From Candidatus Shapirobacteria bacterium (GTDB lineage: Bacteria; Patescibacteriota; Microgenomatia; UBA12405), in contig JBAZTV010000002.1 in NCBI GenBank assembly GCA_041661765.1, positions 139,130 to 203,129 on the forward strand: a DNA stretch of 64,000 nucleotides. The letters are read 5' to 3'. This document shows, piece by piece, positions 39,141 to 55,939 of the stretch; within the stretch, counting starts at the first letter, position 1; each line of letters begins with the position of its first letter. The notes beneath the pieces are model-generated. The model had not been told where the DNA came from. It ran no database searches and saw only the letters and a program-made list of their open reading frames with translations. The position numbers and the translations under genes are program-made.

Positions 39141-39857
39141 ATGAAGAAATCAATAATAATTTTTATTTCAATTAGTGTTATCATTTTAGTCTCATTAATT
39201 TTATTTTTTACGTTAGGTAAAAAAAATACTTCTAATACTAAAATCACCACTAAAAATACTACTCCAGTCACTAAAAAAATTGAATTATCCGCCGATGAAA
39301 AACCCTACATTAGCCTTATTCCCAGTTCTGAAGGCCATAATTTAATTTTTAAAGTTAAAGACATTCCGACTAAATTTACCACCGCCGAATATGAGTTAAT
39401 CTACACTGCTAAAGATGAAAATATAGAAATCGAAAAAGGAGTCAGCGGTACAATTGAGTTATCCGGAGGTGTTTTTGAAAAAGACCTATTATTAGGCACT
39501 GCCAGCTGCACCAACGGTTGTAAATATAAATACGATGAAGGTGTCACTGGAGGAATCCTCACCCTTACTCTAAAAACAAATAATAAAGAATACTTCTCTT
39601 ACGAAACGCCATTCGTTCTAACAAATTCCACCGATATTAATAAAGAAAAAAAATTAACTCTAATTGAAGAAAATTTTATTATCAATGGCACTGTCACTTC
39701 TAAAAGTGATTATTTCATCGCTCTTAAAAATTTACAATCCCTTTATTCCGTCTTCTCCAGTGGTAATGGTAAAGGCAAAATCACTTCAATTGAGCCAGCC
39801 ACTGTTATTAAAACTGACTTAACCTCAATAACTGGTGATTACACTATTACTCAATAA
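39141..39857 (+). CDS. hypothetical membrane-anchored/secreted protein
   Basis: N-terminal TM helix. No recognisable domain. Confidence 0.3.
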   Translation: MKKSIIIFISISVIILVSLILFFTLGKKNTSNTKITTKNTTPVTKKIELSADEKPYISLIPSSEGHNLIFKVKDIPTKFTTAEYELIYTAKDENIEIEKGVSGTIELSGGVFEKDLLLGTASCTNGCKYKYDEGVTGGILTLTLKTNNKEYFSYETPFVLTNSTDINKEKKLTLIEENFIINGTVTSKSDYFIALKNLQSLYSVFSSGNGKGKITSIEPATVIKTDLTSITGDYTITQ

Positions 39858-40741
39858 TGGAATTTCACACTCCCGTTCTATTAAGTGAAACCATTGATCT
39901 TCTTGATGTCCAAAAAAATAAAATTTATATTGATGGTACCCTCGGTCATGGTGGACACACTCTAGAAATTCTCAAAAAAGGTGGCATCGTTTATGGTATC
40001 GATCAAGATCCAAAAAATTTAGAAATCGCCATCAATCGAATCAAAGAAGCAGGATTTGAAAAACAATTTTTTCCAATTCACAATAATTTTAATCAATTAG
40101 AAAATATTATTAATAAAAAGATTAAACAAAAGATCGACGGTATAGTAATTGATCTCGGTATCAGTCAAAATCAACAAACAGATCAAGACAGGGGGTTTTC
40201 ATTTAATGACGAAAACTCTCTCGATATGAGATTAGATCCAGAAAATCAGGAATTAACCGCCGAAGAAATTATTAACACCTACAACTACGACGAACTTTTT
40301 GAAATATTTAGTAAATATGCCCAAGAGGTTTATAGTAAGCCATTAATTTTAAAAATAATTCGCGAGCGTCAAAAATCACCAATAAAAACTGCCACAAGAC
40401 TGGCAAATATTATTAGAGACTTTTACAAAGAACGCCATTTAAAATCTAAAATCGACCCCAGTACTAAAATATTTTTAAGTCTCAGAATTGTCGTCAACGA
40501 TGAATTTAATAATTTAAAAAATATTCTTATCCAAAGTTTAAAAATAGTCGCCTCAAATGGTAATGTCTGTATAATTTCTTTTAATTCCGGTGAAGATCGA
40601 ATTGTTAAACAATTTATCAGGAAATATGCTGATCAAAAAACTATTATCGAAAATAAAAAATCTATTAAAACCTCTTTTCAAGAAATAAAGAAAAACCCTT
40701 TATCTCGCTCAGCCACCTTAAGATCGTATAGAATAGTATAA
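39857..40741 (+). CDS. rsmH: 16S rRNA (cytosine1402-N4)-methyltransferase
   Basis: MEFHTPVLLSETIDLL...YIDGTLGHGGH. First gene of the dcw cluster. Confidence 0.9.
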   Translation: MEFHTPVLLSETIDLLDVQKNKIYIDGTLGHGGHTLEILKKGGIVYGIDQDPKNLEIAINRIKEAGFEKQFFPIHNNFNQLENIINKKIKQKIDGIVIDLGISQNQQTDQDRGFSFNDENSLDMRLDPENQELTAEEIINTYNYDELFEIFSKYAQEVYSKPLILKIIRERQKSPIKTATRLANIIRDFYKERHLKSKIDPSTKIFLSLRIVVNDEFNNLKNILIQSLKIVASNGNVCIISFNSGEDRIVKQFIRKYADQKTIIENKKSIKTSFQEIKKNPLSRSATLRSYRIV

Positions 40742-40742
40742 G

Positions 40743-41000
40743 ATGCTAAACAAACCATTTTTTTTACTCATCTTTTTTTTGATCATCATTCAAGTCGTCT
40801 TTTCATTTTATTATTCCAGTGAAATTATTAATCAAAATAATCTAATCAATCAAAATCAAGTTACTCTTCAATCTTTTAAAATTGAAAATCAAGAATTAGA
40901 GGAAAAATTAGCCATCCTTTCTTCTTTAACCAAAATTGAAGCCACTGCCAGTCAAAAAAAATATATAAATTTGAAAGAAACTATTAATCTCAAAAATTAA
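40743..41000 (+). CDS. ftsL: FtsL-like small bitopic cell-division protein
   Basis: 85 aa with one TM helix followed by a coiled-coil region. It sits between rsmH and ftsI. Confidence 0.45.
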   Translation: MLNKPFFLLIFFLIIIQVVFSFYYSSEIINQNNLINQNQVTLQSFKIENQELEEKLAILSSLTKIEATASQKKYINLKETINLKN

Positions 41001-41001
41001 A

Positions 41002-42654
41002 GTGCAAAATTCAAGGTCTAAAATATTATCTATCGCTCTCACTTTTTGTTTTATAATCGTTTCTTTCCGTTTTTTTTATTGGCAAGTTTTAAAAGCCCCA
41101 GAATTAAAAGAGAAAGCTAAAAACCAAACTTATAAACTTGAAAAAATATTACCTGAACGTGGAAAAATATATTCTTCTGATAATTTTCCCTTAGTTTTAA
41201 ATCAAACTACTTATCAACTTTCTCTTTATAAACCAAATTTTAAAGAAGATTTTGATAAAATTTTAGATCAAATTGAACAAGCTTATCCAAATTTCAAAAC
41301 TGAAAATATTGAATCAATCGACAAATTTAAAAATAACCCAAATCAAAAATGGATAACTTTTAACTCTGCCTTAAATGAAAAACAAAAAAAAATATTAGAT
41401 ATACCTGGGATTGAATTTCAAAAAATAGAGAAAAGATTTTATCCAGAAAATTCTATGGCCAGAGATATTCTTGGAACCATCGGTAGAGATTTTAGTGGTA
41501 CCCAAATTGGATATGGAGGTCTCGAAGCTTTTTATCAAAAACAATTACAAGGAAAGATTGGTTTTATTTGGGGTCCTCAAGACGCTACTGGAAAAACTAT
41601 TCTAAATAAAAAGAGCTGGAGCTCAGATGCAGCTAATGGTAGGAATATTTTTACTAATATCAATCGCAGTGCTCAATTTTATGTTGAAAAACTTCTCCAA
41701 GAAGGCATTGATAAATTTTCCGCTGATTCTGGATCAATTACTATCATTGAACCAAAAACTGGAGCAATTTTAGCTATGGCTTCACTAACTGCCACCAGTT
41801 CCGCCACTCCCAGTTCTATTAGAAATCCCGCCATTTCCGATCTTTTTGAACCAGGATCTATATTTAAACCTCTAATCGTTTCCATGGCTCTCGACACCAA
41901 AACTATTGACACTAATTATATTTGCACAAAATGCAACCAATCCCATATTATTGGTAAATATAATATTAGTAATTGGGATAGTGAATTTCATGCTGATTCT
42001 AGTCTTCAAGATATTATTAAAAACTCCGATAATATTGGTATGAGCTATATTATTGCCAAACTCGGTAAGGAAAATTTCTTAAATTATTATCAAAAACTCG
42101 GACTCACCCAAAAAACTGGAATTGATCTTCAGGGTGAAGCTAAGCCAACCATGAAAACCGAATGGCCAGAAATTGATTTAGCCACTGCCTCTTTTGGACA
42201 AGGAATTGTCGTCACTCAAATCGGCATGCTTCAAGCCTTTAATACTATTGCCAACGACGGTATTTTAGTTAAACCAAAAATCGTCAATTATTTTACTGAA
42301 AACGATAAAATTATTAAAAATAAAAATCAAAAAGAATTCCAAGTTTTTAATCAACAAACAATTAAAGATATTAAATCAATATTAAAATACTCAGTCGAAA
42401 ATGGTGTTGTTACCAAAATGAAACCAGAAAATCTTGAAGTTTGTGCCAAAAGCGGCACCGCACAAGTAGCTATTGGTGGTAGTTATGAAAATAATTCTTC
42501 CACTATCGCCTCATACATTGGATTTTCTCCCTGTTATAATCCCAAATTTACCATGATTGTCACCATTAATAATCCAAAAACTTCACCGTGGGGATCGAGT
42601 ACCGCTGCTCCAATTTGGTATGAGTTAGCATCAAAATTAAACGATTTGTTATAA
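41002..42654 (+). CDS. ftsI: class B penicillin-binding protein (transpeptidase)
   Basis: SxxK (SIFKP), SxN (KNSDNIG) and KSGT (AKSGTAQ) motifs. There is an N-terminal TM anchor. Confidence 0.85.
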   Translation: MQNSRSKILSIALTFCFIIVSFRFFYWQVLKAPELKEKAKNQTYKLEKILPERGKIYSSDNFPLVLNQTTYQLSLYKPNFKEDFDKILDQIEQAYPNFKTENIESIDKFKNNPNQKWITFNSALNEKQKKILDIPGIEFQKIEKRFYPENSMARDILGTIGRDFSGTQIGYGGLEAFYQKQLQGKIGFIWGPQDATGKTILNKKSWSSDAANGRNIFTNINRSAQFYVEKLLQEGIDKFSADSGSITIIEPKTGAILAMASLTATSSATPSSIRNPAISDLFEPGSIFKPLIVSMALDTKTIDTNYICTKCNQSHIIGKYNISNWDSEFHADSSLQDIIKNSDNIGMSYIIAKLGKENFLNYYQKLGLTQKTGIDLQGEAKPTMKTEWPEIDLATASFGQGIVVTQIGMLQAFNTIANDGILVKPKIVNYFTENDKIIKNKNQKEFQVFNQQTIKDIKSILKYSVENGVVTKMKPENLEVCAKSGTAQVAIGGSYENNSSTIASYIGFSPCYNPKFTMIVTINNPKTSPWGSSTAAPIWYELASKLNDLL

Positions 42655-42667
42655 TTGAATACTTTCA

Positions 42668-43969
42668 ATGGTTCAAAAATTAAAAAACGTCCTTCTCCAT
42701 CTACCAAAAAGTTTTTTTTACAATTTAAAGTACGGTTTTCCAAGTAAAAAATTAACTCTAATTGGTATCACTGGAACAGACGGTAAAACTACTACTTGCA
42801 CCCTAGTCAATGAAATATTAAAACAATCTGGTCTAAAAACTGGGTTAATCACTACTATTGGTGCAAAAATTGGCGATAAAGAAATAGATACTGGTTTTCA
42901 CACCACCACTCCAGATCCATCTATTCTCCAAAAAATTTTTACCGATATGGTAAAGGCTGGAATAACCCATGTTGTCTGCGAAGTTACCTCACATGCTCTT
43001 GATCAATACCGTTTTTGGGGTTGTAATTTTGAAGTTTCTGGTATCACCAATACCTCACACGAACATCTCGATTATCATAAAAATATAGAATCTTATATTG
43101 GAACTAAAGCTAAGCTTTTTTCAATTTCTAAAAGTGCTGTTTTAAATAAAGACGATCAATCTTTCGACATAATTAAAAAACAAATCAAAATCCCTTTTAA
43201 AACATTTAGTATTAAAAAAACTTCAGATTATCAAGCCCAAAAAATTAAATTAGATTCAAATTCATTAAGTTTTCATGTTAATGGTCAAAAATTTACCACC
43301 GACAGTAATTATGAATATCAGGTTTATAACATTCTGTTGGCCACTGCAATTTGTTATAAATTAGAAATAAATTCAGAAATAATTCAACGAGTAATAAAAC
43401 ATTTTCCAGAAACAAAAGGTCGTCGAGAAGAAATCCAAAATGACCTTAAATTTAAAACAATCATTGATTTTGCTCACACTCCATTTGCTCTTGAATCATC
43501 ACTTTCTTCACTTAACAAAACTAATCAAGGAAATACTATCGTTATTTTTGGAGCCACTGGTGGACGAGACCAAAGTAAACGCCCAATAATGGGTGAAATT
43601 GTTTCTAAGTTAGCCAACATCGCCTTAATCACTTCGGATGATACTAGAAACGAAAAAATAGAAAATATTAATAAACAAATAATAAGTGGTATTGATCCAA
43701 AAAAATCAGAACTAATTGATTATCAAGAAATTAAAAATAAAAAGCAAATTCAAAAAGTACTCGAATTATCCAATAAAAAATTTATATATTTTAATATTCC
43801 CAATCGTCAAGACGCCTTTAATTTAGCCATAAAATTAGCTCAACCAAACGATGTTGTTATTGCCTGTGGTAAGGGCCATGAAACCACTATTCTCCATGGA
43901 CACACTGAATATCCCTGGTCGGAAGCAGAAGCTTTTAGAACTGCCTTCAGACTTCGAAAAACAAAATAA
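42668..43969 (+). CDS. murE: UDP-MurNAc-tripeptide synthetase (MurE-type Mur ligase, short N-terminus)
   Basis: P-loop IGITGTDGKTTT, GATGGRDQSKRPIMG and TSDDTRNE, which is a variant of the DNPR motif with the Arg retained. Confidence 0.7.
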   Translation: MVQKLKNVLLHLPKSFFYNLKYGFPSKKLTLIGITGTDGKTTTCTLVNEILKQSGLKTGLITTIGAKIGDKEIDTGFHTTTPDPSILQKIFTDMVKAGITHVVCEVTSHALDQYRFWGCNFEVSGITNTSHEHLDYHKNIESYIGTKAKLFSISKSAVLNKDDQSFDIIKKQIKIPFKTFSIKKTSDYQAQKIKLDSNSLSFHVNGQKFTTDSNYEYQVYNILLATAICYKLEINSEIIQRVIKHFPETKGRREEIQNDLKFKTIIDFAHTPFALESSLSSLNKTNQGNTIVIFGATGGRDQSKRPIMGEIVSKLANIALITSDDTRNEKIENINKQIISGIDPKKSELIDYQEIKNKKQIQKVLELSNKKFIYFNIPNRQDAFNLAIKLAQPNDVVIACGKGHETTILHGHTEYPWSEAEAFRTAFRLRKTK

Positions 43970-43970
43970 T

Positions 43971-44579
43971 ATGACTCAGTTTAATTTAAAAAATACCAAT
44001 AATATTGATCAAAATTATAAAAATGGTCTCCTTCCTCAAAGAAACGACAAAAATTTATTTTATTCTCAATCCAGCAGCCGTTCTAATTTAAAAAACTTCA
44101 ACTTAAATTCAGAAAATCGCCGAATTTTAAGAAAAACAGATGACTTTAGTTTTGAGAAAATGCTTTTAAAAGATTTTAATTATAACGTCAAAGTTCAAAA
44201 AGAAATCTCTACTTGGATAAAAACACTTGATTGGAATTTTCCAATAAGTTCAATTAAAAATGTTTTCAAAAATCATATTTTTAATTATATATATATATGG
44301 AAAGATAAACAAAAAAATATCATTGCTTACTCTCTTTGTTATTTCTCAAAAGATATTAGCCATATCGCCTACGTTTTTTACAACCCAAAATTAACCCATG
44401 AAAATTTACCTATCCGCTTAGTTTTACAAGTCATTATCGACAGCCAAAAATTAGGTCTAAAATATTGTTATCTCGGTCGCTTTTCTCAAGATATTGGTTT
44501 TTACAAAAGAAATATGCCAGGTTTTGAATATTTTGAAAACAATCAATGGCTTCCATATAAAAATTTGTTTAAAATTTAA
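43971..44579 (+). CDS. ATE/Bpt-like aminoacyl-tRNA--protein transferase-fold protein (GNAT-like), Cys-less
   Basis: The C-terminus LGLKYCYLGRFSQDIGFYKRNMPGFEYFENNQW resembles the ATE_C core (GLxYxYLGYWI...KMxYKxxFxPxExL...W). The N-terminal F.L.S.ENRRILRK resembles ATE_N. Confidence 0.4.
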   Translation: MTQFNLKNTNNIDQNYKNGLLPQRNDKNLFYSQSSSRSNLKNFNLNSENRRILRKTDDFSFEKMLLKDFNYNVKVQKEISTWIKTLDWNFPISSIKNVFKNHIFNYIYIWKDKQKNIIAYSLCYFSKDISHIAYVFYNPKLTHENLPIRLVLQVIIDSQKLGLKYCYLGRFSQDIGFYKRNMPGFEYFENNQWLPYKNLFKI

Positions 44580-44581
44580 TT

Positions 44582-45955
44582 ATGCATATTCATATTTTAG
44601 GAATCGCCGGAACTATGACTGCCTCATTAGCCATCGCCCTAAAAAAAGAAGGGCACGTTATTACTGGTTCAGATCAAGAAAAAATTTATCCACCTATTAG
44701 TACTATTCTCAAAAAAGCCAACATCAAAATCAATTCTTCAAAAATTAATTCGACTATAGATTTAGCCATAATTGGTTCATCTTTTTCTAATTTTCAAAAA
44801 ACCAAAGAAGAGCTTGAGCAAATAAAAAAATTAAATATCAAATATATTTCCGCCAGTGAGTTTATTGCCCAAAATTTAAGCAAAGAAGACTCTATCTTAA
44901 TTGCCGGAACCTACGGTAAAACCACTATTTCCTCTCTTGTCTCTTGGATTTTTGATCAGGCCAATTTAAACCCCAATTATATGTTCGGCGGAAAAGCACT
45001 TAATCATTTTCCCTCAGTTAATATCTCCCCATCAAATTGGTCTATTATCGAAGCCGATGAATCAATTCATGGTCTCGACACTCAAGCCAAATTTTTATAT
45101 TACCCAGTCAAATTTTTATTACTAACTAGTGCTGATTGGGAACACAAAGATTCTTATTCCACCGAAATTGAAAATTTTAATGCCTTTAAAAAATTAATTT
45201 TAAATGTTCCCACTGATGGAATTTTATTTATAAATTCCCAAGGATATCAAACAAAAGAACTAAGTCTTTATTCAAAATCAAAAATAATTACCTATAATTC
45301 ACCAACTTCTGATTATTTTATAAAAAATATAAAAATCAAAAAAAATTTTTCCATTTTAGACATCAAAACTCCTAGAAATATTATCCAAATCAAAACTAAA
45401 TTAATTGGCCAATTCAACTTTGAAAACATTTTAGCCGCCATCACTATTGTTGATAGTTTAAATATTCCCCAAACTAAAATTAAACAAGCCATTTCAAAAT
45501 TTAAAGGTATTAATCGTCGAATTGAAAAAATTTATGATCATGGAAATATTATTATATTTGATGATTTTGCCCAATCTTCCAATAGAATAAAATCAACTAT
45601 TGCTGCTATAAAATTTCATTATCCAAAAAATAATATCAAAATTTTATACCAACCTCACGCTTCCTTTATTCAACACAAGAAAAGCCTAAAAGAATTTAAA
45701 AACGTTTTTGATTCAGTTTCTGAAGTCGTCTTGTCTAAATTAAGTTTTAATCATAAAGTTGAAAAAAATAATCGTGTCACTGCCAAAGATTTTAAAGAGG
45801 TGGTTGGTAATAAATTAATATATCTTCCCATCGATAAAGATATTTGTTCTTTTTATAAAAAAAATCTCAAAAGTGGCGATATTTTAATTAATATGAGCTC
45901 TGGCGGTTTTAGTGGAAATAAAATTGTAAAATCTATTATTAATTCTTTAAAATAA
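44582..45955 (+). CDS. Mur ligase of the MurC/Mpl clade, with Mpl-like N-terminal signature
   Basis: MHIHILGIAGTMTASLAIALKKEGHVITGSDQEKIYPPISTIL (IHILGIxGTxMxxLA and YPPMST are Mpl-typical). P-loop GTYGKTT. Confidence 0.65.
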   Translation: MHIHILGIAGTMTASLAIALKKEGHVITGSDQEKIYPPISTILKKANIKINSSKINSTIDLAIIGSSFSNFQKTKEELEQIKKLNIKYISASEFIAQNLSKEDSILIAGTYGKTTISSLVSWIFDQANLNPNYMFGGKALNHFPSVNISPSNWSIIEADESIHGLDTQAKFLYYPVKFLLLTSADWEHKDSYSTEIENFNAFKKLILNVPTDGILFINSQGYQTKELSLYSKSKIITYNSPTSDYFIKNIKIKKNFSILDIKTPRNIIQIKTKLIGQFNFENILAAITIVDSLNIPQTKIKQAISKFKGINRRIEKIYDHGNIIIFDDFAQSSNRIKSTIAAIKFHYPKNNIKILYQPHASFIQHKKSLKEFKNVFDSVSEVVLSKLSFNHKVEKNNRVTAKDFKEVVGNKLIYLPIDKDICSFYKKNLKSGDILINMSSGGFSGNKIVKSIINSLK

Positions 45956-45958
45956 TCT

Positions 45959-47287
45959 ATGTCCAGATATATCATTAATGGTGGTAAACCACTTAAAGGT
46001 GAAGTTTCTATTAGAGGTGCCAAAAATGCCAGTTTTAAACAAATTATCGCTTCCATGTTAACCGATAAAACAGTTCAATTAAATAATGTTCCAAAAATTT
46101 CAGATGTCAAAATAACCACCAGTATCGCCAAAAGTTTAGGTTGTCAAATAAACCAAATAGGGGATCACAGTCTAGAATTAAAAACTTCTAAAATAACTAA
46201 TTCAACAGTGCCCAATGGTACTGGTGAAAAATCTAGAACCTCATTTATATTTGTCGCCCCATTACTCACCAGAACTGGAACTGCCATTGTTCCTACTCCA
46301 GGCGGCGATAAATTAGGTAATAGACCATTAGACCGTCTTTTTGATTGTTTTTCAAAAATGAATATTCATTTTTCTGAAACTGAAAATAATATTACATTTA
46401 ACACCGACAAAATTATCGGCACTCATTATACTTTTACAAAACCTTCTCATACCGTCACCGAAGTAATCCTTATGACTGCCACTCTCGCTAACGGCGAAAC
46501 CATCATCGACAACGCTGCTCTTGAACCAGAAATCGATGACTTAATCTTAATGCTAAATCAGATGGGAGCTAATATTCAAAGAGATCTAAAAAATAATAAA
46601 AGAATAATTATTCAAGGTGTATCTAAATTAAAAGGAACTGAACATGATGTAATTTGCGATCGAAATGAAATAGTCACTTTCGCTTGTGCCGCTTTAGCTA
46701 CTAAAGGGTCAGTCTCTATTTTTAGAGTCAAACCAAAAGTTGTTCAAACATTTTTAGAAATTATTGAAAAAATGGGGGCTAAAATTAAAACTGGTAATGA
46801 TGAAATTTATGTTGAATGGGTTAAGCCTTTGACCAATATTGATATTGAAACTGGACCAGAACCAGAATTTATGACCGATTGGCAGGCTATTTTTTCTGTT
46901 CTATTAACTCAAACCGTTGGTTGTAGTTCTATTATCGAAAAGGTCTATCCTAGCCGATTTCAACACATTGAAAATCTTAAAAAAATGGGAGTTAAGGTTA
47001 ATTTTTTCAATCCAGAAATAAATAATCCGAACGAATATTATCAATTTAATAAAGAAAGTGATCGTCCTGAATATTTTCATGGTGTTAAAATTTATGGCCC
47101 TACCAAATTAAAACCATCTAATTTTGTTATTAAAGATCTTCGAGCTGGAGCCTCAGCTACAATTGCTGCTCTAACCGCATCTGGTAAATCAACTATTGAT
47201 GGAGTCGAGTATATTGAGAGGGGATATGAAAAATTAGCTGAGCGTCTTTGGTCTCTAGGTGCTAATATAGAATATATAAAAACATAA
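45959..47287 (+). CDS. murA: UDP-N-acetylglucosamine 1-carboxyvinyltransferase
   Basis: MSRYIINGGKPLKGEVSIRGAKNASFKQIIASML...LDRLF. 442 aa. Confidence 0.9.
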   Translation: MSRYIINGGKPLKGEVSIRGAKNASFKQIIASMLTDKTVQLNNVPKISDVKITTSIAKSLGCQINQIGDHSLELKTSKITNSTVPNGTGEKSRTSFIFVAPLLTRTGTAIVPTPGGDKLGNRPLDRLFDCFSKMNIHFSETENNITFNTDKIIGTHYTFTKPSHTVTEVILMTATLANGETIIDNAALEPEIDDLILMLNQMGANIQRDLKNNKRIIIQGVSKLKGTEHDVICDRNEIVTFACAALATKGSVSIFRVKPKVVQTFLEIIEKMGAKIKTGNDEIYVEWVKPLTNIDIETGPEPEFMTDWQAIFSVLLTQTVGCSSIIEKVYPSRFQHIENLKKMGVKVNFFNPEINNPNEYYQFNKESDRPEYFHGVKIYGPTKLKPSNFVIKDLRAGASATIAALTASGKSTIDGVEYIERGYEKLAERLWSLGANIEYIKT

Positions 47288-47290
47288 TTT

Positions 47291-48325
47291 ATGATTCATC
47301 TATATCTAGGACTACTTCTCTTTTCTTTTTTAATCACCAGTATTTTAGTTATACCTTTCATTAACCTTCTCTATAAATTTAAATTTCAACGACAAACTCA
47401 AAAAACCACTGACTTCCAAAACAAAAGAACTACCATATTCGACAAATTTCACAATCTAAAATCAGGGACACCTGTTGGTGGCGGATTATTGATTATCGCC
47501 ACTGTTTCCATTCTTTTTATATTACTTTTTCCAATTCTTAAATTTTCTCGAATCTTTATTTCATCCAATTACACTATCACCCATGAAATCGCTATTCTAT
47601 TTTTTACTTTCATTAGTTTTGGTATGCTCGGTCTTTATGACGACGTACACAAATTTTTCGGATTCAAAAATACTGGATTCTTCGGCCTAAAAATGATCCA
47701 TAAATTAATTTTACAAATAATAATTTCATTAATCATTTCCTTTATGATTTATTTTCAATTAAAAATTGATTTTATTTATCTACCGTTTTTTGGCGCTATT
47801 AATTTAGGATTTTTCTTTATCCCTATTTCCGTCATTTTTATCACTGGCTTTGCTAATTTCTTTAATATTACTGATGGCTTAGACGGTTTATCTGGCGGAC
47901 TTTTAATGTTTGCTCTTTTTGCGTTTTGGATTTTAGCCAGCACTTCAATGGATACTGTTCTCTCTTCATTTTTAGCTCTCTGGATCGGTTCTCTAATAGC
48001 ATTTCTTTATTTTAATGTTTATCCAGCCAGAATCTGGCTCGGCGATGTTGGGTCACTCTCTTTCGGTGCCACTTTTGCTGTAATTGCTTTACTTTTAGGA
48101 AAAGTCGTTCCTTTAATTATAGTAGGAGCTCCATTCATTATTGAAGGTTTATCCAGTGCTATTCAACTATTCAGTAAAAAATATTTTCATAAAAAAGTTT
48201 TTCCCGCTGCTCCAATTCACCTTACTTTCCAAAACATGGGTTGGGAAGAGCCAAAAATCGTTTTCAGGGCTTGGCTAGCCGGAATTATATTAGCAGTATT
48301 TGGACTATGGTTAGGACTAAATTAG
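47291..48325 (+). CDS. mraY: phospho-N-acetylmuramoyl-pentapeptide transferase
   Basis: FANFFNITDGLDGLSGG and LGDVGSLSFGA motifs. 10 TM helices. Confidence 0.9.
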   Translation: MIHLYLGLLLFSFLITSILVIPFINLLYKFKFQRQTQKTTDFQNKRTTIFDKFHNLKSGTPVGGGLLIIATVSILFILLFPILKFSRIFISSNYTITHEIAILFFTFISFGMLGLYDDVHKFFGFKNTGFFGLKMIHKLILQIIISLIISFMIYFQLKIDFIYLPFFGAINLGFFFIPISVIFITGFANFFNITDGLDGLSGGLLMFALFAFWILASTSMDTVLSSFLALWIGSLIAFLYFNVYPARIWLGDVGSLSFGATFAVIALLLGKVVPLIIVGAPFIIEGLSSAIQLFSKKYFHKKVFPAAPIHLTFQNMGWEEPKIVFRAWLAGIILAVFGLWLGLN

Positions 48326-48846
48326 AACTACAACAAGAGATAGAGAAATATATCGGCTTACCTTATAGTAAGAATATCCTTAAAGACGACAAAATAATCA
48401 AAGAACAATTTCTTGGAGGTAAAGGCAATTGTCGACAAATAGCTACAGAAACTATCCGACTTGCCCAAAAACAAAAAATAGATTTAATTCAATTAAATAA
48501 CCAAGAATTTTATAATTTTCAAAAAAAGAACCATATCGGTATTGATTGTTCTGGCCTTGCCTGTCAATTATTAAATTTTTATTTTAATTCAGAATTAAAT
48601 CCTCGCCAAACTTCCGCCAACATATTGACCTCCACTCCAATTTCAAAAGAAATAAAACCAAATGAAATTAAAACAGGAGATTTGATCCGACAAAAAAACG
48701 GTCATCATGTCTTATTTATCATCGACAAACAAGGCAACACCATTAATTATGTCGACAGTTCATTTTCCGGCAGGGGAGTAAGATATGGAACTGCCGACCT
48801 CACCAATAAATCATTTATCCACCAAGGCTTCTTTCGATTAATTTAA
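48307..48846 (+). CDS. NlpC/P60-like papain-fold cysteine peptidase (putative cell-wall hydrolase)
   Basis: Internal ATG at 48307. The ORF-track start is a TTG inside mraY. IGIDCSGLACQLL provides the catalytic Cys and GDLIRQKNGHHVLFII the His. Confidence 0.4.
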   Translation: MVRTKLELQQEIEKYIGLPYSKNILKDDKIIKEQFLGGKGNCRQIATETIRLAQKQKIDLIQLNNQEFYNFQKKNHIGIDCSGLACQLLNFYFNSELNPRQTSANILTSTPISKEIKPNEIKTGDLIRQKNGHHVLFIIDKQGNTINYVDSSFSGRGVRYGTADLTNKSFIHQGFFRLI

Positions 48847-48861
48847 AATAAAAATCAAAAT

Positions 48862-49020
48862 CTATTTTTCCTCGATTAATTCTCGATATTTTAGTGGAGT
48901 CAAAGATAAAATCTCTACCTCAGTCCCACATTCAGGACATTCAATAATATCTCCCACCATTGTGGCTTCTATTAATTCAATTTCTGTTTCACAATCTGGA
49001 CAAATAACTTTTTCGTTCAT
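48862..49020 (-). CDS. 52-aa LysW-like double CPxCG zinc-ribbon protein (absent from the ORF track)
   Basis: The minus-strand translation is MNEKVICPDCETEIELIEATMVGDIIECPECGTEVEILSLTPLKYRELIEEK. Compare Thermus LysW, ...CPECGAELRL...CEDCGAELEVVGLDPLRLE... The C-terminus ends EEK, not the acceptor EDWGE. Confidence 0.45.
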   Translation of the reverse strand: MNEKVICPDCETEIELIEATMVGDIIECPECGTEVEILSLTPLKYRELIEEK

Positions 49021-49060
49021 GTTTTATTAAAATTAATAACTAGTATAATTAAACTATTAT

Positions 49061-49882
49061 ATGGCAAATACACCTTTAATTAAATTAGAAAATGTTTATC
49101 TAAAAAGAGAAGACTTAAACGAAACCGGCTCAGCTAAAGATCGAGCCATGATTTTTCAAATCGAAAATTTAAAAAAACAGGGTTTTAAAACTGCTGTCAT
49201 TTCCAGCACTGGCAATGCCGCCATTTCCGCCGCCTATTTTTGCCACCTTAATCAAATTGACCTAACAATTTTTGTTTCCCCTAAAATCAATAAAACTAAA
49301 TTTGATTTACTCAAAAAGGATGGTGGTCAAATTTTTATTACCGATCAACCAATTAGTGAATCCATAAAATTTTCCAAAAAAAATCACTCCTATCTTCTTC
49401 GTCAATCCACCGACCCCAGTGCCCTAATTGGTTACCAAGAAATTGGCAAAGAATTAATGAATAAACTACCCCAAATTACAAGTATTTTTGTTCCAGTTGG
49501 CAGTGGTACAACCCTTCTAGGAATTTCTCAAACATTGACATCATCAGTTAAAATCTATGCCACTCAACCAGCCAGTAATTGTCCTTTATCAAAATTTTTT
49601 GATTCAAATTATCAACCAGAAACAGAAAATATCACCGATGCACTTTCCGCTAAATATCTTCCTTTAAAATCTCAAATAATTTCTACCATTAAAAACAGTG
49701 GTGGCACTGGTCTGGTCGTTCAAAATAATGAAATTTTAGAAGCCCAAAAAATACTAGAATCAAATAAAATAAAAACATCTCTAGAAGGTGCTTTAGCTTT
49801 TGCTGGCTTTAAAAAAGCCACTAAAAATAATCTAAATATAGGCAGTTATCCAGTAGTGATTCTAACCGGATGCCAAAGATAA
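49061..49882 (+). CDS. PLP-dependent fold-type II enzyme (threonine synthase / Trp-synthase-beta-like)
   Basis: TPLIKLENVYLKREDLNETGSAKDRA carries the PLP Lys. Then STGNAAISAAYF and a Gly-rich loop VGSGTT. At 273 aa it is short. Confidence 0.55.
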   Translation: MANTPLIKLENVYLKREDLNETGSAKDRAMIFQIENLKKQGFKTAVISSTGNAAISAAYFCHLNQIDLTIFVSPKINKTKFDLLKKDGGQIFITDQPISESIKFSKKNHSYLLRQSTDPSALIGYQEIGKELMNKLPQITSIFVPVGSGTTLLGISQTLTSSVKIYATQPASNCPLSKFFDSNYQPETENITDALSAKYLPLKSQIISTIKNSGGTGLVVQNNEILEAQKILESNKIKTSLEGALAFAGFKKATKNNLNIGSYPVVILTGCQR

Positions 49883-50982
49883 ATCTAGAAACCACTATTA
49901 ATAAATCGCCTTATATTTTCTTTTTTTTAGTCGTCGATAAATTTTTAGATATCGAAATCCCTCAATTAACAAAATTCGAAAAAATTTATCTTTCCGACTA
50001 TCCCTCAATTAAAGAAAAAAACAGCGGCAAATTACTATCAAACCCAAAAGTTATTGACTACATTTTAAAAAAATCTCAAAAGACTAAACTCATTCCTGCC
50101 ATAATTCCTTTTAAACCATCCGCTAAAATTGATTTTTTGTGTCAAAAATATAATTGGATAAATATTAGTAATCCTAGCCCTATTAATCGTTTTTTAGAAG
50201 ACAAAATTAAATTTGCCAAACTTAGTCAAAAATACAAATTACCAACCATTCCTTTTTCCATTGATAATTTTTCTCAAAAAAATTTTTTAAAATATCAAAA
50301 ACTTTATAATAAAAAATTAGTTCTTCAAACCCACTTTGGTTGGGCTGGTAATAGCACATTTTCAGCCGAATCTTGGAATGAAATTAAAGATAAAATTTCT
50401 TCTGATGTTATTGTAAAATACAGCCCCTTTATTAAATCTTCTTATTCCTTATTAAATAATTGTTGTCTTACTAAATTTGGTCTAATTCAAAGTCCACCTG
50501 CTCTTCAATACACTGGAATTTATCCCTATACAAAAAATCCCTTCACTACTGTCGGTCGGCAATGGCCATCTTTTGCTCCCTTAAAAATAACCAATGAAAT
50601 TAATAAAATAACTGAAAATTTCAGTAAAATTTTGAAAGAAATCGGTTATAAAGGTTTTTTTGGTCTCGATTTTTTAATTTATAAAAATAAAGTTTTTTTA
50701 TTAGAATGTAACCCTCGTCTAACCGCATCCTTTGGTTTTTATACAAAAATAGAACAAAAACAAAATATCACTCCTCTTTTCTATTTTCATATTGTTGAAT
50801 TCTTAAAAACTAATTATCAAATTAACCTAAAACAAGAGCAATCAAGATTCAATAATAAAAAAATTATCGGTTCTGAGTTAACCACAAAAGATAAAAATAA
50901 TCACACTCATCAAAAACTAAATTTTGATTACCCTTTATCAAAAACCACCAATCCTATCTCTATTTCCCAAAAAATTAAATGA
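49870..50982 (+). CDS. ATP-grasp carboxylate-amine ligase of unknown specificity
   Basis: GFFGLDFLIYKNKVFLLECNPRLTASFGF is a typical ATP-grasp C-domain. 370 aa. Confidence 0.55.
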   Translation: MPKINLETTINKSPYIFFFLVVDKFLDIEIPQLTKFEKIYLSDYPSIKEKNSGKLLSNPKVIDYILKKSQKTKLIPAIIPFKPSAKIDFLCQKYNWINISNPSPINRFLEDKIKFAKLSQKYKLPTIPFSIDNFSQKNFLKYQKLYNKKLVLQTHFGWAGNSTFSAESWNEIKDKISSDVIVKYSPFIKSSYSLLNNCCLTKFGLIQSPPALQYTGIYPYTKNPFTTVGRQWPSFAPLKITNEINKITENFSKILKEIGYKGFFGLDFLIYKNKVFLLECNPRLTASFGFYTKIEQKQNITPLFYFHIVEFLKTNYQINLKQEQSRFNNKKIIGSELTTKDKNNHTHQKLNFDYPLSKTTNPISISQKIK

Positions 50983-52145
50983 AAGAAACTAAATCTCCTC
51001 TTCTATTTTTGGTTTTTAGTTTAGTTTTTATTGGACTTATTTTTATTTCTATTTCATCATTAAGTGAAGCCAGCTCCTCAATTGGAGATAAATTCTTTTA
51101 TATAAAAAAACAAGGATTTTGGCTTGTTTTAGGAATAATTTCTTTTTATATAACTTCAAAAATCAATATTAAAACTATTAAAAAATTTTCTTTTGCCCTT
51201 TATGCAATTTCCATTTTCGGTTTAATACTGGTTTTAATTCCAAGCCTAGGAAATGAAGCTCTTGGTGCCAGACGTTGGTTGAATTTAGGTTTTACCAGCA
51301 TCCAGCCTTCAGAAATTTTAAAATTAACTTCAATCATTTATTTTTCTTTTCTTTTTTCCAAAAAAGAAAACCTTAATATAAAAAACCTGATTTTTTACCT
51401 TGGTCTTCCTTTTATATTAATAATTGTAGAGCCAAATTTAAGCACCGCTATTTTAATTTCAGCCATAGTTAGTTCCATTTATTATCTTTCCGGAGGAGAT
51501 ATTGTTCCTTTATTTAGTATTTTTTGCATTATTTTAATAATCAGTATTCCATTAATTTTTTTATCACCATATCGATCAGCCAGACTAAAAACTTTTTTAG
51601 AACCACAACAAAATCAAGAAACTTCATCGTACCACAGCAATCAAATCATTCTAACCCTTTCTTCTGGAGGTTTTTTTGGTAAAGGCTTCGCTAATTCGGA
51701 TCAAAAATATAAATTCCTTCCAAAAATTTCCACCGATTCAATTCTTGCTGTTATTGGTGAAGAAATTGGTTTTATAGGAATTTTTGCAGTTTTATTGGTT
51801 TATCTTTCCTTAATAAATTATCTTTTAAGATTTTCTCAAACTATAGATGATCCATTTCAAAGTTTAATAGTATCAGGAAGCGCTTGTTGGATTGCCTATC
51901 AAAGCTTGATTAATATTTCCGCCATTACTGCTCTCATTCCATTAACTGGCGTCACTCTCCCATTTATTTCCTATGGCGGATCCTCCCTTATTACTCTTTT
52001 TATTGTTATTGGTCTAATCAGAAACATCGAAAAAAACCAAAAAATGTTGCTATACTCAAAGAGTGAACACAGTAAAAAAGACGATAATAATCACCGGAAC
52101 ACACTTAACTCCAGCGCTAGAACTCATTCGCCAATTGAAAATTGA
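50979..52145 (+). CDS. ftsW: SEDS-family peptidoglycan glycosyltransferase
   Basis: 10 TM helices. LPFISYGGSSLI C-terminal motif. The hydrophilic tail overlaps murG by 83 bp. Confidence 0.8.
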   Translation: MKETKSPLLFLVFSLVFIGLIFISISSLSEASSSIGDKFFYIKKQGFWLVLGIISFYITSKINIKTIKKFSFALYAISIFGLILVLIPSLGNEALGARRWLNLGFTSIQPSEILKLTSIIYFSFLFSKKENLNIKNLIFYLGLPFILIIVEPNLSTAILISAIVSSIYYLSGGDIVPLFSIFCIILIISIPLIFLSPYRSARLKTFLEPQQNQETSSYHSNQIILTLSSGGFFGKGFANSDQKYKFLPKISTDSILAVIGEEIGFIGIFAVLLVYLSLINYLLRFSQTIDDPFQSLIVSGSACWIAYQSLINISAITALIPLTGVTLPFISYGGSSLITLFIVIGLIRNIEKNQKMLLYSKSEHSKKDDNNHRNTLNSSARTHSPIEN

Positions 52146-53157
52146 TAACAAAATTGATTGGCAAATAAATTATATTGGTCGAAAAAATAATTCCAGTGTC
52201 GGTAATAACCCCTCAATTGAATCTAAAATTATCCCAAAAATAGGCATAAATTTTTATTCCATTAATTGTGGCAAATTGGATCGTCGTTGGCTTCTAAATA
52301 CCATAAAAGGTCTTCCTCAAACCACCAGTTCATTATTTAAATCTTTAAGATTAATTAAAAAAATAAAACCGGATATTATTGTTTCCTTTGGAGGCTATGT
52401 TTCTGTTCCAGTAATTATTAGTAGTTTTTTAAAAAAAATACCATCTATTACTCATGAACAAACCCTAACCAATAGTTTAACCACAAAAATTAATAGTCTT
52501 TTTGTCAACAAAGTAGCTCTTTCTTTTAATAATAAAAATCAAAAAGAAAATCTTCCCAAAAACAAAATAATTATTACCGGAAATCTATTAAGACAAGAAA
52601 TTTTTCATCCACAAATTTCAAAAATAGGCGACAATCTCAAAAAAATAAAAGTTCCTATTATTTATATTACCGCCGGCAATCAAGGTTCCCACACTATAAA
52701 CTTATTAATTAAAAAAATATTACCTGAGCTAAAAAAATATTTTATAATTCACCAAACTGGAAAAAATGATTTTTCTGAGTTCAAAAAAATGGAAAAAAAA
52801 TACCCAAATTACCAAGTTTTTGACTATCTAGAAGCTAATAATGTCGGACATATCTTTAATAAAGCAGATCTCATTATTAGTCGTTCCGGTGCCAACACCA
52901 GCCAAGAAATTGTCGCCCTAAACAAAAAATCAATTTTAATTCCACTTAAAATTAGTCAACAAAATGAGCAATTATTAAATGCTCTTTGGGTAAAAGAAAA
53001 AAATCCAAAAAATACCCAAATTATAGAAGAAAAAAATATCACTAAAAAAAATGTTTTAAAAAAAATAAATAAATTAATTATTGTTAAAACCAAAAAAATC
53101 GCCATTAAAAACACTGATAACTTAAAACTTTTAAACTTAATTCATGAAATTATTTAA
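52063..53157 (+). CDS. murG: UDP-GlcNAc:lipid I N-acetylglucosaminyltransferase
   Basis: IIITGTHLTPALELIRQL N-terminal loop. GT28 C-terminal domain (ITAGNQGSHTIN...ISRSGANTSQEIV). Confidence 0.8.
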   Translation: MNTVKKTIIITGTHLTPALELIRQLKIDNKIDWQINYIGRKNNSSVGNNPSIESKIIPKIGINFYSINCGKLDRRWLLNTIKGLPQTTSSLFKSLRLIKKIKPDIIVSFGGYVSVPVIISSFLKKIPSITHEQTLTNSLTTKINSLFVNKVALSFNNKNQKENLPKNKIIITGNLLRQEIFHPQISKIGDNLKKIKVPIIYITAGNQGSHTINLLIKKILPELKKYFIIHQTGKNDFSEFKKMEKKYPNYQVFDYLEANNVGHIFNKADLIISRSGANTSQEIVALNKKSILIPLKISQQNEQLLNALWVKEKNPKNTQIIEEKNITKKNVLKKINKLIIVKTKKIAIKNTDNLKLLNLIHEII

Positions 53158-53527
53158 GATTTTTATTTTTATTATTTTTTTTTCAGCCCTTTTCTACTCT
53201 ATTTTTTCATTTGTAAATTCCTCTGGAGATAAGATCAATCCAATTTCAAATAAAAACAATTTTTATCTTCAATTAGAACATGGTTTAAAAACAGCTCAAA
53301 TTGACCTTACAAAAAGTACCATCAAGGATTATCAAAATCAATTTGAATTCTATATAATTAATGAAGGCAATAATCCAATTAAAATTATTTTATCCACTCA
53401 AAAAAATCCATATTGGCAAATTGCTTCTTTACAAGAAATTTTAAAAACAGCTAAAATTAATAATAAGCAACTACAATTAGTTGATCTCAGTATCAACCAC
53501 CCATATGCAACATTCAAAAATAATTAA
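53144..53527 (+). CDS. minimal FtsQ/DivIB-like protein (by position only)
   Basis: 127 aa. One N-terminal TM helix. Located between murG and ftsA. Confidence 0.3.
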   Translation: MKLFKIFIFIIFFSALFYSIFSFVNSSGDKINPISNKNNFYLQLEHGLKTAQIDLTKSTIKDYQNQFEFYIINEGNNPIKIILSTQKNPYWQIASLQEILKTAKINNKQLQLVDLSINHPYATFKNN

Positions 53528-54761
53528 TGTAATCGATATTGGCACTTCAAAAGTTACTAGTCTTGTTGGACAATATTTAGATGCTGAAGATAAATTCAAT
53601 ATTATTGCAGTTTCTTCAATTCCATCCCTCGGTTTTCGAAAAGGCCAAATAATTAATTTAGAACAAGCTTCTCAAACCATCACTCAAAGTATTGAATCTG
53701 CAGAAAGAATGGCCGGATTTCAAATAAATAATGCTCATATTTCCATTTCTGCTCCTCATATTGAATCAATAAATTCTCATGGGGTTGTTGCTATTAGTAA
53801 TCCCAATGGTGAAATCGATGCCAATGATATCAGTCGTGTCACCGAAGCCGCCAAGGCTATTTCTTTGCCAAGCGGTAAAGAAATAATCCATATTATCCAA
53901 AGAAAATTTACCGTCGACGGCCAAGAAGGTGTCATTGATCCAATAGGAATGAACGGCATCCGACTCGAAGTTGAAGCTCATTTAATTTTAGCTTCTAGTC
54001 CAGCTCTAAAAAATCTCAAAAAATGTCTTGAAGATATCGGTATTAAAATTGAATCTCTGACTTATGCTGGTCTCAGCACCGCCACTGCCGCCCTAACCGA
54101 CACCGAAAAAGAGCTCGGCGTTGCCCTGGTCGATATTGGTGGTAGTATTACCAATATCACAATTTTTATCGAAGGTTCCCCAGTTTTTTCATCAGTCATT
54201 CCAATTGGTGCCAACAATGTAACTAATGATCTCGCCATTGGTCTTCGATTTTCCATCGAAGATGCTGAAAAAATAAAATTAAAATTAGTTAAATTATTTG
54301 AAAACAAAAAATTCGAAGATGATGTTGAACTATCTCATTTCGATATTCACTCAGAAGATAAGAAAAAAATTTCTCTTCAAACTGCCATAAATGGCATTAT
54401 CAAACCTCGACTCGAAGAAATTTTTAGTTTAATCTATTCCCAAATTGAAGCCAGTGGCTTTCATCAATCAATTCCAGCCGGTATTGTTCTAACCGGTGGC
54501 GGTGCTATGACCGTTAATGCTAAGGAAATTTGTAATCGAACCATTCCTCTTCCATTAAGAATTGCTAATCCTCCAAAAGTAGGTGGTATAGTTGATGATA
54601 TTATGAATCCAGCTTATACTAGCACTATTGGTCTTTTGCTTTATAATAAAAAATCAAAAAAATGCAGTGGTTCAAATATTAAAGGTATTAAAACCCCAAA
54701 AATTTCCATGAGTGGACTTTTTGATAAAATCAAAAAAATACTAGAACCACTTTTACCCTAA
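53481..54761 (+). CDS. ftsA: cell-division protein FtsA
   Basis: [14 protein letters not shown] actin-fold phosphate-1 motif, and GGGAM near the C-terminus. The ORF-track start is TTG at 53481. The first ATG is at 53505. Confidence 0.85.
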
Positions 54762-54763
54762 AT

Positions 54764-55939
54764 ATGGGATTAATTAAAACTCTCACTGGACAATTTGCCA
54801 AAATAAAAGTCATCGGAGTCGGTGGCGGTGGTAATAATGCCATCAATTCAATGATTTCTGAAAACGCCATCAAAGGTGTTGATTTTATTGCTGTTAATAC
54901 CGATTCTCAAGCTCTTTTAAATTCCCTCGCTTCAATTAAAATTCAAATTGGTGAGAAATTAACTAAAGGTCTTGGAGCTGGGGGTAATCCTCAAATGGGA
55001 CAAAAAGCCGCCGAAGAATCAAAAGAAAGAATTAAAGAAGTTTTACAAGGAACCGATATGGTTTTCATTACTGGTGGTATGGGCGGTGGCACATGTACTG
55101 GAGCAGCTCCAGTTATTGCCCATATCGCCAAAAAAGAGTTGGGGATTTTAACTATCGGTGTTGTTACTAAACCATTTTTATTCGAAGGCACTCGTCGCAT
55201 GACCAACGCCGAAGAAGGAATTTCTCAATTAAGAGAAAACGTTGACACTCTAATTGTCATTCCAAATCAAAAAGTCATGGAAGTCGTTAATAATAAAGCC
55301 ACTCTTTTAGAAGCCTTTAAGATTGCTGACTCTGTTTTAAGTAAAGGTACCAAAGCTATTGCTGATCTAATTACTGTCCCAGGATTAATAAATCTAGATT
55401 TCGCCGATATTAAAACTGTTATGAGTAATGCTGGTTCCGCTCTTATGGGAACAGGTGAAGCCGAAGGTGAAAATAAAATTCAAAAAGCCGTCGAAGATGC
55501 TATCGATTCACCGTTAGTCGAAGTCAATATTGAAGGTGCTAGAGGAGTCTTAATCAATGTTACTGGTGGTCCTGATATTACTATGTCCGAAATTGAAGAA
55601 GCAGCCAGAAATATCACTGAACGAACCGCTCCTGATGCCAATATTATTTTTGGAGCCACTATTGATAAAGAACTTAAAGGCAAAGTTAAAATTTCTGTTA
55701 TTGCTACTGGGTTTGATACCAGTCGCGCTAATCTTTATCAACACATAAAAAAACCACAACAAACTCTAATAAATCTATCCAATCAATCAAAAATTTCAAC
55801 ACCAGAAACTAAAAATACATCAAATGAATCAAATTTCAGTGAAAATAGAATAAAAGAATTTTTAAATACCAAAGAAGTTCCTACTGGAATTGATATCATC
55901 GATGAATACGATATTCCAGCTTTTTTAAGAAAAAAATAA
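54764..55939 (+). CDS. ftsZ: cell-division GTPase FtsZ
   Basis: [13 protein letters not shown] and [12 protein letters not shown] tubulin signature. Confidence 0.95.

Follow-up and report, generated by a model that had tools for sequence, protein, structure and literature searches.

A small zinc-ribbon protein with a LysW-like fold and a Glu-Glu-Lys tail, encoded beside a conserved enzyme cassette in cell-wall gene clusters of Shapirobacteria and other lineages

The DNA considered here (the window) is a stretch of 64,000 nt from a Candidatus Shapirobacteria bacterium, contig JBAZTV010000002.1. On its minus strand, at 48862–49020, it encodes a small zinc-ribbon protein, and the flanking genes specify a pyridoxal phosphate (PLP) enzyme, an ATP-grasp ligase, and an NlpC/P60-like amidase (Table 1). 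In the open reading frame (ORF) listing, the zinc-ribbon gene translates from an ATG start as MNEKVICPDCETEIELIEATMVGDIIECPECGTEVEILSLTPLKYRELIEEK, followed by a stop, exactly the clean 52-aa frame that the initial annotation had described. Also correct was its description of a gene that diverges from the PLP enzyme gene across a 40-bp spacer, and the TAGTATAAT that it noted there sits at 49041–49049 on the plus strand. Other details needed adjustment. Two CPxCG knuckles had been reported 19 residues apart; the second knuckle (CPECG) has this form and the first (CPDC-E) does not, and the knuckle starts (C7 and C28) are separated by 21 residues. The gene had also been called unannotated, which holds only for an ORF track with a 60-aa cut-off. 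In public data, identical zinc-ribbon genes have been called on three contigs, and both NCBI and JGI name the orthologues “lysine biosynthesis protein LysW.”

Table 1. Features of the cassette and their positions in the window
Feature	Position	Strand	Description
LysW-fold zinc-ribbon gene	48862–49020	−	52 aa; Cys C7, C10, C28, C31; fixed-length acidic tail ending E50-E51-K52
Divergent intergenic region	49021–49060		40 bp; TATAAT on each strand
PLP enzyme, threonine-synthase-like, fold type II	49061–49882	+	273 aa; PLP lysine in TGSAKDR; second motif VISSTGNAA
ATP-grasp carboxylate-amine ligase	49870–50982	+	370 aa; 13-nt overlap with PLP gene; ExN Mg site ECNPR
NlpC/P60-like cysteine amidase, cytoplasmic	48307–48846	+	179 aa; DCSG Cys motif, GHHV His; convergent with zinc-ribbon gene

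The zinc-ribbon ORF is a genuine gene on which purifying selection acts strongly. A word-indexed protein search returned 169 close homologues with identities of 65%–96%, all of which terminate in EEK, and when one genome per GTDB species was scanned, 121 species were found to encode a relative, nearly all of them Ca. Shapirobacteria where the records are meaningfully titled. In the 76 genes that were extracted, the frame is invariably intact and the terminal Lys is always present (the full EEK end in 74). Codon-position entropy across the ungapped core is 0.55/0.25/1.28, with variation mostly at third positions, and the pairwise ratio of nonsynonymous to synonymous substitution (dN/dS) is 0.02–0.2 (0.02–0.23 for the window gene against its relatives, at dS values of 0.5–1.4). 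Conservation of the frame, including the pattern of synonymous substitution, was the check that the initial annotation had proposed, and its absence from homologous loci the outcome that would have spoken against a gene; the frame is kept in relatives. At the same loci, the zinc-ribbon protein (59%–96% identity) is more conserved than the PLP enzyme (46%–93%), the ATP-grasp protein (41%–90%), or the NlpC/P60-like protein (36%–89%).

Short ORFs do call for caution, and the AT-rich window contains many spurious ones of 40–80 aa. The reading frame could in principle have arisen by chance, or it could be a conserved noncoding or regulatory element that happens to read as an ORF. However, in-frame conservation in 121 species-level genomes, the codon-position entropy, and the low dN/dS place it far beyond chance. 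Hundreds of homologues, down to 35% identity, retain the four Cys residues and the tail, and the fold is predicted with confidence (see below). No Rfam family or tRNA was found to overlap the gene. The conservation pattern thus rules out a chance ORF, an explanation to which we assign essentially no probability. A PADLOC scan for defence systems gave no significant match.

The protein has the globular domain of LysW. In a profile search of the kind that the initial annotation had suggested (hmmscan), Pfam PF21344 (Zn_ribbon_LysW) matches residues 6–47 with 44.4 bits, above the gathering score of 27 (E = 1.3e-11). A phmmer search of PDB sequences aligns the whole core with the LysW proteins of Thermococcus (2.7e-7) and Thermus (5.4e-6). 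An AlphaFold2 (AF2) model built from 149 homologues has a predicted local distance difference test (pLDDT) score of 87.8, and when it was compared with the PDB using Foldseek, ranks 1 to 6 were all LysW chains (template modelling [TM] scores of 0.70–0.76, probability 1.00), with the next matches at E > 1. Profile, sequence, and model comparisons thus support homology in fold with the amino-group carrier LysW. The general likeness to LysW/ArgW of Thermus thermophilus, Sulfolobus tokodaii, and Thermococcus kodakarensis (PDB 3wwl, 3vpb, and 5k2m) extends to a size of about 54 aa, an acidic four-Cys zinc ribbon, the core ECxxCGxExE..S..PL, a C-terminal acidic arm, and an adjacent gene for an ATP-grasp ligase.

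The initial annotation had matched the protein to the LysW family, and what stands of this is the globular domain, as judged from Pfam, the phmmer alignment over ECPxCGxExE..S..PL..E, and the fold; orthology with LysW itself does not stand. Both NCBIfam models miss their cut-offs (TIGR01206 lysW, 35.5 vs. 53.2; NF041070 LysW/ArgW, 34.8 vs. 75), and the NCBIfam match covers the model no further than position 45 of 54, leaving the tail unmatched. In LysW, the substrate sits on the gamma-carboxyl of the terminal Glu in an EDWGE arm. The window protein instead finishes with K-Y-R-E-L-I-E-E-K, and every extracted homologue has Lys as its last residue. Its arm is also shorter by five residues: the stretch after the last CxxC is 21 residues long in 179 of 249 EK-ended proteins, compared with 26 residues in 22 of 24 EDWGE proteins. 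The protein is acidic (isoelectric point 4.05, charge −10.5), with a family median charge of −8.5 vs. −17.5 for EDWGE proteins.

Gene context points the same way. Beside the gene in the window, at 80 Shapirobacteria loci, and at other loci, we found no LysX/RimK-type ligase, amino-acid kinase, semialdehyde dehydrogenase, class-III aminotransferase, or M20 hydrolase, and LysX, LysZ, LysY, LysJ, LysK, and homocitrate synthase are absent from all of the approximately 90 loci examined. In contrast, an EDWGE LysW recovered by the same search and used as a control (P0483) lies in an operon with homocitrate synthase, aconitase, an isocitrate-type dehydrogenase, LysX, LysY, LysZ, and LysJ. The partner ATP-grasp protein of the window is of the amino-acid-ligase/PurK type rather than the RimK/LysX type. 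The remaining partners are a fold-type-II PLP enzyme and an NlpC/P60 amidase, whereas the LysW set has a kinase, a reductase, a fold-type-I aminotransferase, and an M20 hydrolase. The setting is that of cell-wall genes, rather than of lysine or arginine synthesis. A canonical LysW/ArgW of alpha-aminoadipate lysine (or arginine) biosynthesis would share the Pfam domain and the fold, and would carry the name that the public sources use. Nevertheless, this identity is effectively refuted by the NCBIfam scores, the tail with Lys in place of the substrate-bearing Glu, the arm length, and the absence of pathway genes that the control locus does hold; we consider it highly improbable. The public name “lysine biosynthesis protein LysW” is probably wrong for this protein.

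Comparison of tails indicates that the zinc-ribbon protein belongs to a separate and widespread branch with a fixed-length arm ending in Glu-Glu-Lys. A profile search over 1.84 billion representative proteins gave 771 matches, and tails were classed among the best 150. In that set are 46 short proteins with an E-x-K or EK end and 23 with W-containing, EDWGE-type ends, the remainder being tandem or fused forms or having other tails. The short proteins ending in EK that were fetched (n = 254) mostly finish with EEEK, IEEK, VEEK, or DEEK. A second search, seeded with EEK proteins from outside the Shapirobacteria, recovered members labelled CPR2, Dojkabacteria, and Dormibacteria/Dormibacterota; its few Chloroflexi-labelled matches are canonical EDWGE LysW. 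A literature search, incomplete in its coverage, found no description of the EEK-tailed branch or of the cassette.

Two observations on these searches deserve mention. Other LysW-like forms (P0246–P0248, P0266, P0274, P0278, P0281–P0286, and others) came from the same profile search, including tandem double zinc ribbons of 120–185 aa with basic or acidic C-terminal extensions and single ribbons whose long poly-acidic tails end in W-containing motifs other than EDWGE. It should also be noted that many records of Shapirobacteria-type clusters (L006, L008, L010–L014, and others) are titled “uncultured Gammaproteobacteria bacterium,” and one (L068) “Candidatus Methanoperedens sp.”; these titles look like placeholders or mis-binned contigs rather than real taxonomy.

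The neighbours of the zinc-ribbon gene are conserved as well. All Shapirobacteria loci that are long enough show the order MraY, NlpC/P60-like amidase, zinc ribbon (on the opposite strand), PLP enzyme, ATP-grasp ligase, FtsW, MurG, FtsA, and FtsZ. Ten further neighbourhoods of distant EEK proteins were compared (L084/L085 from Dormibacterota; L086 from Dojkabacteria; L087/L088 from CPR2; L089, L090, L091, L092, L094, and L095; and a JGI contig). All ten, like the window, have the zinc-ribbon gene divergent from the PLP enzyme gene, which is followed by the ATP-grasp gene (ATP-grasp_3). The PLP enzyme gene adjoins the zinc-ribbon gene in every locus that extends that far, and the opposed orientation of the zinc-ribbon gene relative to all of its partner genes is kept across phyla. 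The distant ATP-grasp and PLP enzymes have 26%–42% identity with their window homologues (tblastn) and match the same NCBIfam models (PRK06524 and the threonine-synthase models). In two neighbourhoods, the 3′ ends of the zinc-ribbon gene and of a convergent MurD-like gene overlap, by 35 nt in L084 (7140–7174) and by 20 nt in L092 (7134–7153), and such very tight packing argues for long-standing linkage.

The amidase is a slightly looser member of the cassette. The window protein, with its start taken from the gene calls on public contigs, is a marginal match to Pfam NLPC_P60 (22.9 bits vs. a gathering score of 23), whereas the match is clear in Dormibacterota and CPR2. Homologues with the DCS motif adjoin the trio of zinc ribbon, PLP enzyme, and ATP-grasp ligase in L084, L086, L087, L091, L092, L094, L095, and the P0429 locus, that is, in eight of the ten further neighbourhoods in addition to the window. 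Included in this count are proteins of L086, L091, L094, and L095 that had no recorded Pfam match and a truncated gene at the contig end of L092, all of which proved to be homologues of the window amidase and all of which have DCS. No signal peptide was found on the window amidase, and an N-terminal signal-like segment is likewise absent from the full-length homologues examined.

The PLP enzyme matches Pfam PALP with 159 bits. Its best NCBIfam matches are short threonine-synthase models, all far under their cut-offs, and sequence comparison with the PDB places it at equal distance from threonine deaminase, serine racemase, threonine synthase (ThrC), and cysteine synthase (CysK). All lineages retain both the TGSxKDR motif with the PLP lysine and the VISSxGNAA motif. 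Because the PLP lysine motif, the DCS Cys motif of the amidase, and the ExN site of the ATP-grasp ligase (ECNPR, which is invariant) are all conserved, the cassette enzymes look active. Among the closest structures to the ATP-grasp ligase are BesA (8yi6) and PylC (4ffl), with which it has sequence identity of only 9%–10%. BesA makes gamma-glutamyl amides and PylC acylates the epsilon-amine of lysine, in each case with free amino acids, rather than a protein tail, as substrates.

In the window, the trio lies between mraY (47291–48325) and ftsW (50979–52145), which is the usual place of murD in a division and cell-wall (dcw) cluster. The same placement is seen in L089, L090, and L094; in the P0429 locus and in L095, the trio is beside mraY, not between mraY and ftsW. 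In four other neighbourhoods (L084, L087, L091, and L092), which are outside dcw clusters, the gene convergent with the zinc-ribbon gene encodes a Mur ligase whose best match is MurD (TIGR01087 scores of 192, 251, 166.5, and 209.5 bits, respectively, vs. a cut-off of 212). No MurD-like gene was found in the typed parts of the mraY-associated clusters, where MurE, MurC/Mpl-like ligases, and one MurF are present; the Mur ligase of L094 is untyped. The sole exception to the cell-wall association is L086 (Dojkabacteria), with no cell-wall gene within 7 kb. The best reading of these arrangements is that the cassette is tied to peptidoglycan-precursor synthesis, and most specifically to the step at which MurD adds D-glutamate.

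A canonical Ddl is encoded in the same cluster as the trio in L094, so the ATP-grasp ligase of the cassette is not simply a D-Ala-D-Ala ligase. The idea that the PLP enzyme and the ATP-grasp ligase are a plain replacement for alanine racemase and Ddl is weakened by this gene.

The dcw cluster of the window (39857–55939) comprises RsmH, a small FtsL-like ORF, a penicillin-binding protein, a MurE-like ligase, an ATE_C-like protein, a MurC/Mpl-like ligase, MurA, MraY, the cassette, FtsW, MurG, an FtsQ-like protein, FtsA, and FtsZ; MurD, MurF, MurB, and Ddl are not part of it. The MurC-like ligase scores 237 against a MurC cut-off of 335, with Mpl as second match (178). The MurE-like protein is matched from position 97 of 486 (NF001126) or 77 of 472 (TIGR01085), and since the matches begin so late in the models, the usual N-terminal domain is missing. 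The ATE_C-like gene (43971–44579, plus strand; 202 aa) encodes a protein with weak similarity to arginyl-tRNA-protein transferases (ATE_C, Fem-like fold) and keeps its place between MurE and the MurC-like ligase at every Shapirobacteria locus as well as in L090. Its product may be a tRNA-dependent amino-acid transferase that acts on the stem peptide. Two other lineages have FemAB genes close to the trio (the P0429 locus and L095). The MurD-like ligase of L092 (7134–9185, minus strand; 683 aa) has an extra DUF559 (endonuclease-like) region toward its C-terminal side. Upstream of the dcw genes, the window also contains a large surface-polysaccharide cluster (16174–37237) with many GT1, GT2, and GT4 glycosyltransferases, a Wzx-type flippase, a Wzy/O-antigen-ligase-like protein, an epimerase/dehydratase, a hexapeptide acyltransferase, S-adenosylmethionine synthetase, and a lysyl-phosphatidylglycerol-synthase-like membrane protein, as well as a 2512-aa ORF with a TTG start (8454–15992, minus strand).

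The 40-bp spacer is probably a shared bidirectional promoter, judging from its motifs and conservation. A TATAAT on the plus strand (49044–49049) ends 11 nt before the ATG of the PLP enzyme gene, and one on the minus strand (the complement of 49056–49061) lies 35 nt before the ATG of the zinc-ribbon gene. The spacer is almost invariant in six related genomes for which synonymous dS is 0.5–0.75. In a scan of 48200–49400 for the sigma-70 promoter consensus, the number of sites was not above chance (eight vs. 4.7 ± 2.6 expected), and a terminator scan of the same interval was likewise not above chance.

What might the zinc-ribbon protein do? A carrier protein, served by a different enzyme set from that of LysW, stays the best functional guess. 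In this reading, the protein would be a carrier or scaffold for an ATP-dependent cycle of loading, modification, and release that feeds peptidoglycan stem-peptide synthesis, a proposal to which we give tentatively a little less than an even chance. The ATP-grasp ligase would link an amino acid covalently to the end of the arm at the expense of ATP, the PLP enzyme would convert the tethered amino acid, and the papain-fold amidase would free the product, or pass it on, for stem-peptide assembly. Such a cycle fits the LysW-fold docking domain, the fixed arm, the invariant Lys with its near-invariant preceding Glu, and the linked genes for a ligase, a PLP enzyme, and an amidase. From gene neighbourhood, fold similarity, and knowledge of the families we infer that loading is covalent, which atom takes part in the attachment, and what the substrate and product would be.

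Some versions of the cycle are easier to envisage than others. A fold-type-II PLP enzyme needs a free alpha-amino group on its substrate, which argues against attachment through the amine, as in LysW, and favours linkage of a carboxyl to the epsilon-amine of Lys. The reactions of BesA and PylC, both among the closer structural relatives of the ATP-grasp ligase, are precedents for such a linkage. Specifically, the gamma-carboxyl of L-Glu would be joined to the epsilon-amino group of the invariant terminal Lys, leaving the alpha-amino group open to PLP chemistry (e.g., L-to-D inversion), and an NlpC/P60 amidase specific for gamma-D-glutamyl bonds would then free D-Glu for MurD. NlpC/P60 enzymes typically cut gamma-D-glutamyl-diamino-acid bonds, and this specificity, together with the MurD neighbourhood, makes D-Glu the most coherent proposal for the product. 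We rate the conversion of L-Glu to D-Glu on the carrier as unlikely.

Several considerations weigh against the carrier cycle or its specific form. With a free length of approximately five to nine residues, the arm may be too short for an active site that is buried; residues 43–47 are still in a strand in the AF2 model. We know of no glutamate racemase of PLP fold type II. The PLP enzyme is most like threonine synthases, and these use phosphorylated substrates. Four genes also seem more expensive than a racemase encoded by one. Two clusters, L089 and L090, have no amidase gene. Finally, charge complementarity between the acidic protein and its partners is not general: the AT-rich window encodes basic partner enzymes, with a charge of +27.8 on the ATP-grasp ligase, but in the GC-rich Dormibacterota locus the ATP-grasp ligase is acidic (−8.5).

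Two other functional readings use the same genes differently. By the logic of pathways that build amino-acid-derived products on scaffold peptides, the zinc-ribbon protein could be a ribosomally made substrate or scaffold: the ATP-grasp ligase and the PLP enzyme would modify or extend its encoded C-terminal Lys (or Glu-Lys), which the NlpC/P60 enzyme would then cleave off as a small molecule. Alternatively, its tail could be a primer. The invariant terminal Lys and fixed tail length would be expected of such a molecule, a peptidase belongs to the cassette, and the divergent promoter region of the gene's own would permit high expression. However, to spend one 52-residue zinc protein per product molecule would be costly for a cell-wall building block. 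Furthermore, the alpha-amino group of an encoded Lys is locked in a peptide bond, so that its C-alpha is closed to a fold-type-II PLP enzyme. The LysW-like domain, moreover, is well folded and unlike a disordered leader, which speaks for a docking module that can be used again. We regard a consumed scaffold as rather improbable. Alternatively, the PLP enzyme and the ATP-grasp ligase may act on free amino acids or on a UDP-N-acetylmuramic acid (UDP-MurNAc) peptide, as exemplified by the enterococcal pair of aspartate racemase and D-aspartate ligase, with the zinc ribbon as a noncovalent adaptor, regulator, or substrate mimic (its Glu-Lys end would resemble the gamma-D-Glu-L-Lys of a stem peptide). 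The embedding of the cassette in cell-wall clusters, the serine racemases among the best PDB sequence matches of the PLP enzyme, and the FemAB genes nearby in two loci are all compatible with this. Against it are the Ddl of L094, beside which the cassette ATP-grasp is not simply another Ddl, and the strict linkage of the trio outside dcw clusters, which suggests a direct working partnership. Moreover, the LysW fold, terminal residue, and arm length are kept across phyla and at a level above the conservation of the enzymes, which is hard to explain for a mere regulator. This alternative, which accounts less well for the conserved arm, also seems to us unlikely.

Individual elements of the proposed carrier cycle have precedents. 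In cysteine synthesis of Mycobacterium tuberculosis, the small carrier of the CysO/CysM/Mec+ system acts through its C-terminus together with a fold-type-II PLP enzyme, and a specialised protease frees the amino acid, much as proposed here. CysO, however, has a ubiquitin fold and a thiocarboxylated Gly-Gly end that is activated by adenylation, and its system has no zinc ribbon, ATP-grasp ligase, or cell-wall link. For the supply of D-Glu, the closest parallel is MurD2/MurL of Xanthomonas, in which an ATP-dependent, one-way conversion of L- to D-glutamate occurs on a tethered substrate and is tied to a MurD-like ligase (PMC8788868). Like the proposal, it is a noncanonical source of D-Glu for stem-peptide position 2 that involves ATP and a tethered glutamate. 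The tether in that case is UDP-MurNAc-L-Ala and the catalyst a single epimerase without known domains (PMC8788868), whereas the cycle proposed here would use a protein tether and a PLP enzyme with an ATP-grasp ligase and an amidase.

The implications concern both annotation and biology. The name carried by the orthologues is probably a systematic misannotation, flagged here in organisms that have no such pathway nearby. To our knowledge, LysW-type carriers have been described only for the synthesis of lysine and arginine and for a few secondary-metabolite pathways. The EEK branch differs from them in its reactive end and in its enzymes, and it occurs in cell-wall clusters of ultra-small bacteria and Dormibacterota; its distinct end, enzymes, and cell-wall wiring therefore point to an undescribed step in the supply of peptidoglycan precursors. 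The cassette is a small, testable system of four proteins. If the D-Glu version of the cycle is true, the zinc-ribbon protein would be the first “carboxyl-side” carrier protein, a mirror image of LysW, which holds its substrate by the amino side, and the cassette would represent a third route of D-Glu supply, present in several lineages of the candidate phyla radiation and in Dormibacterota.

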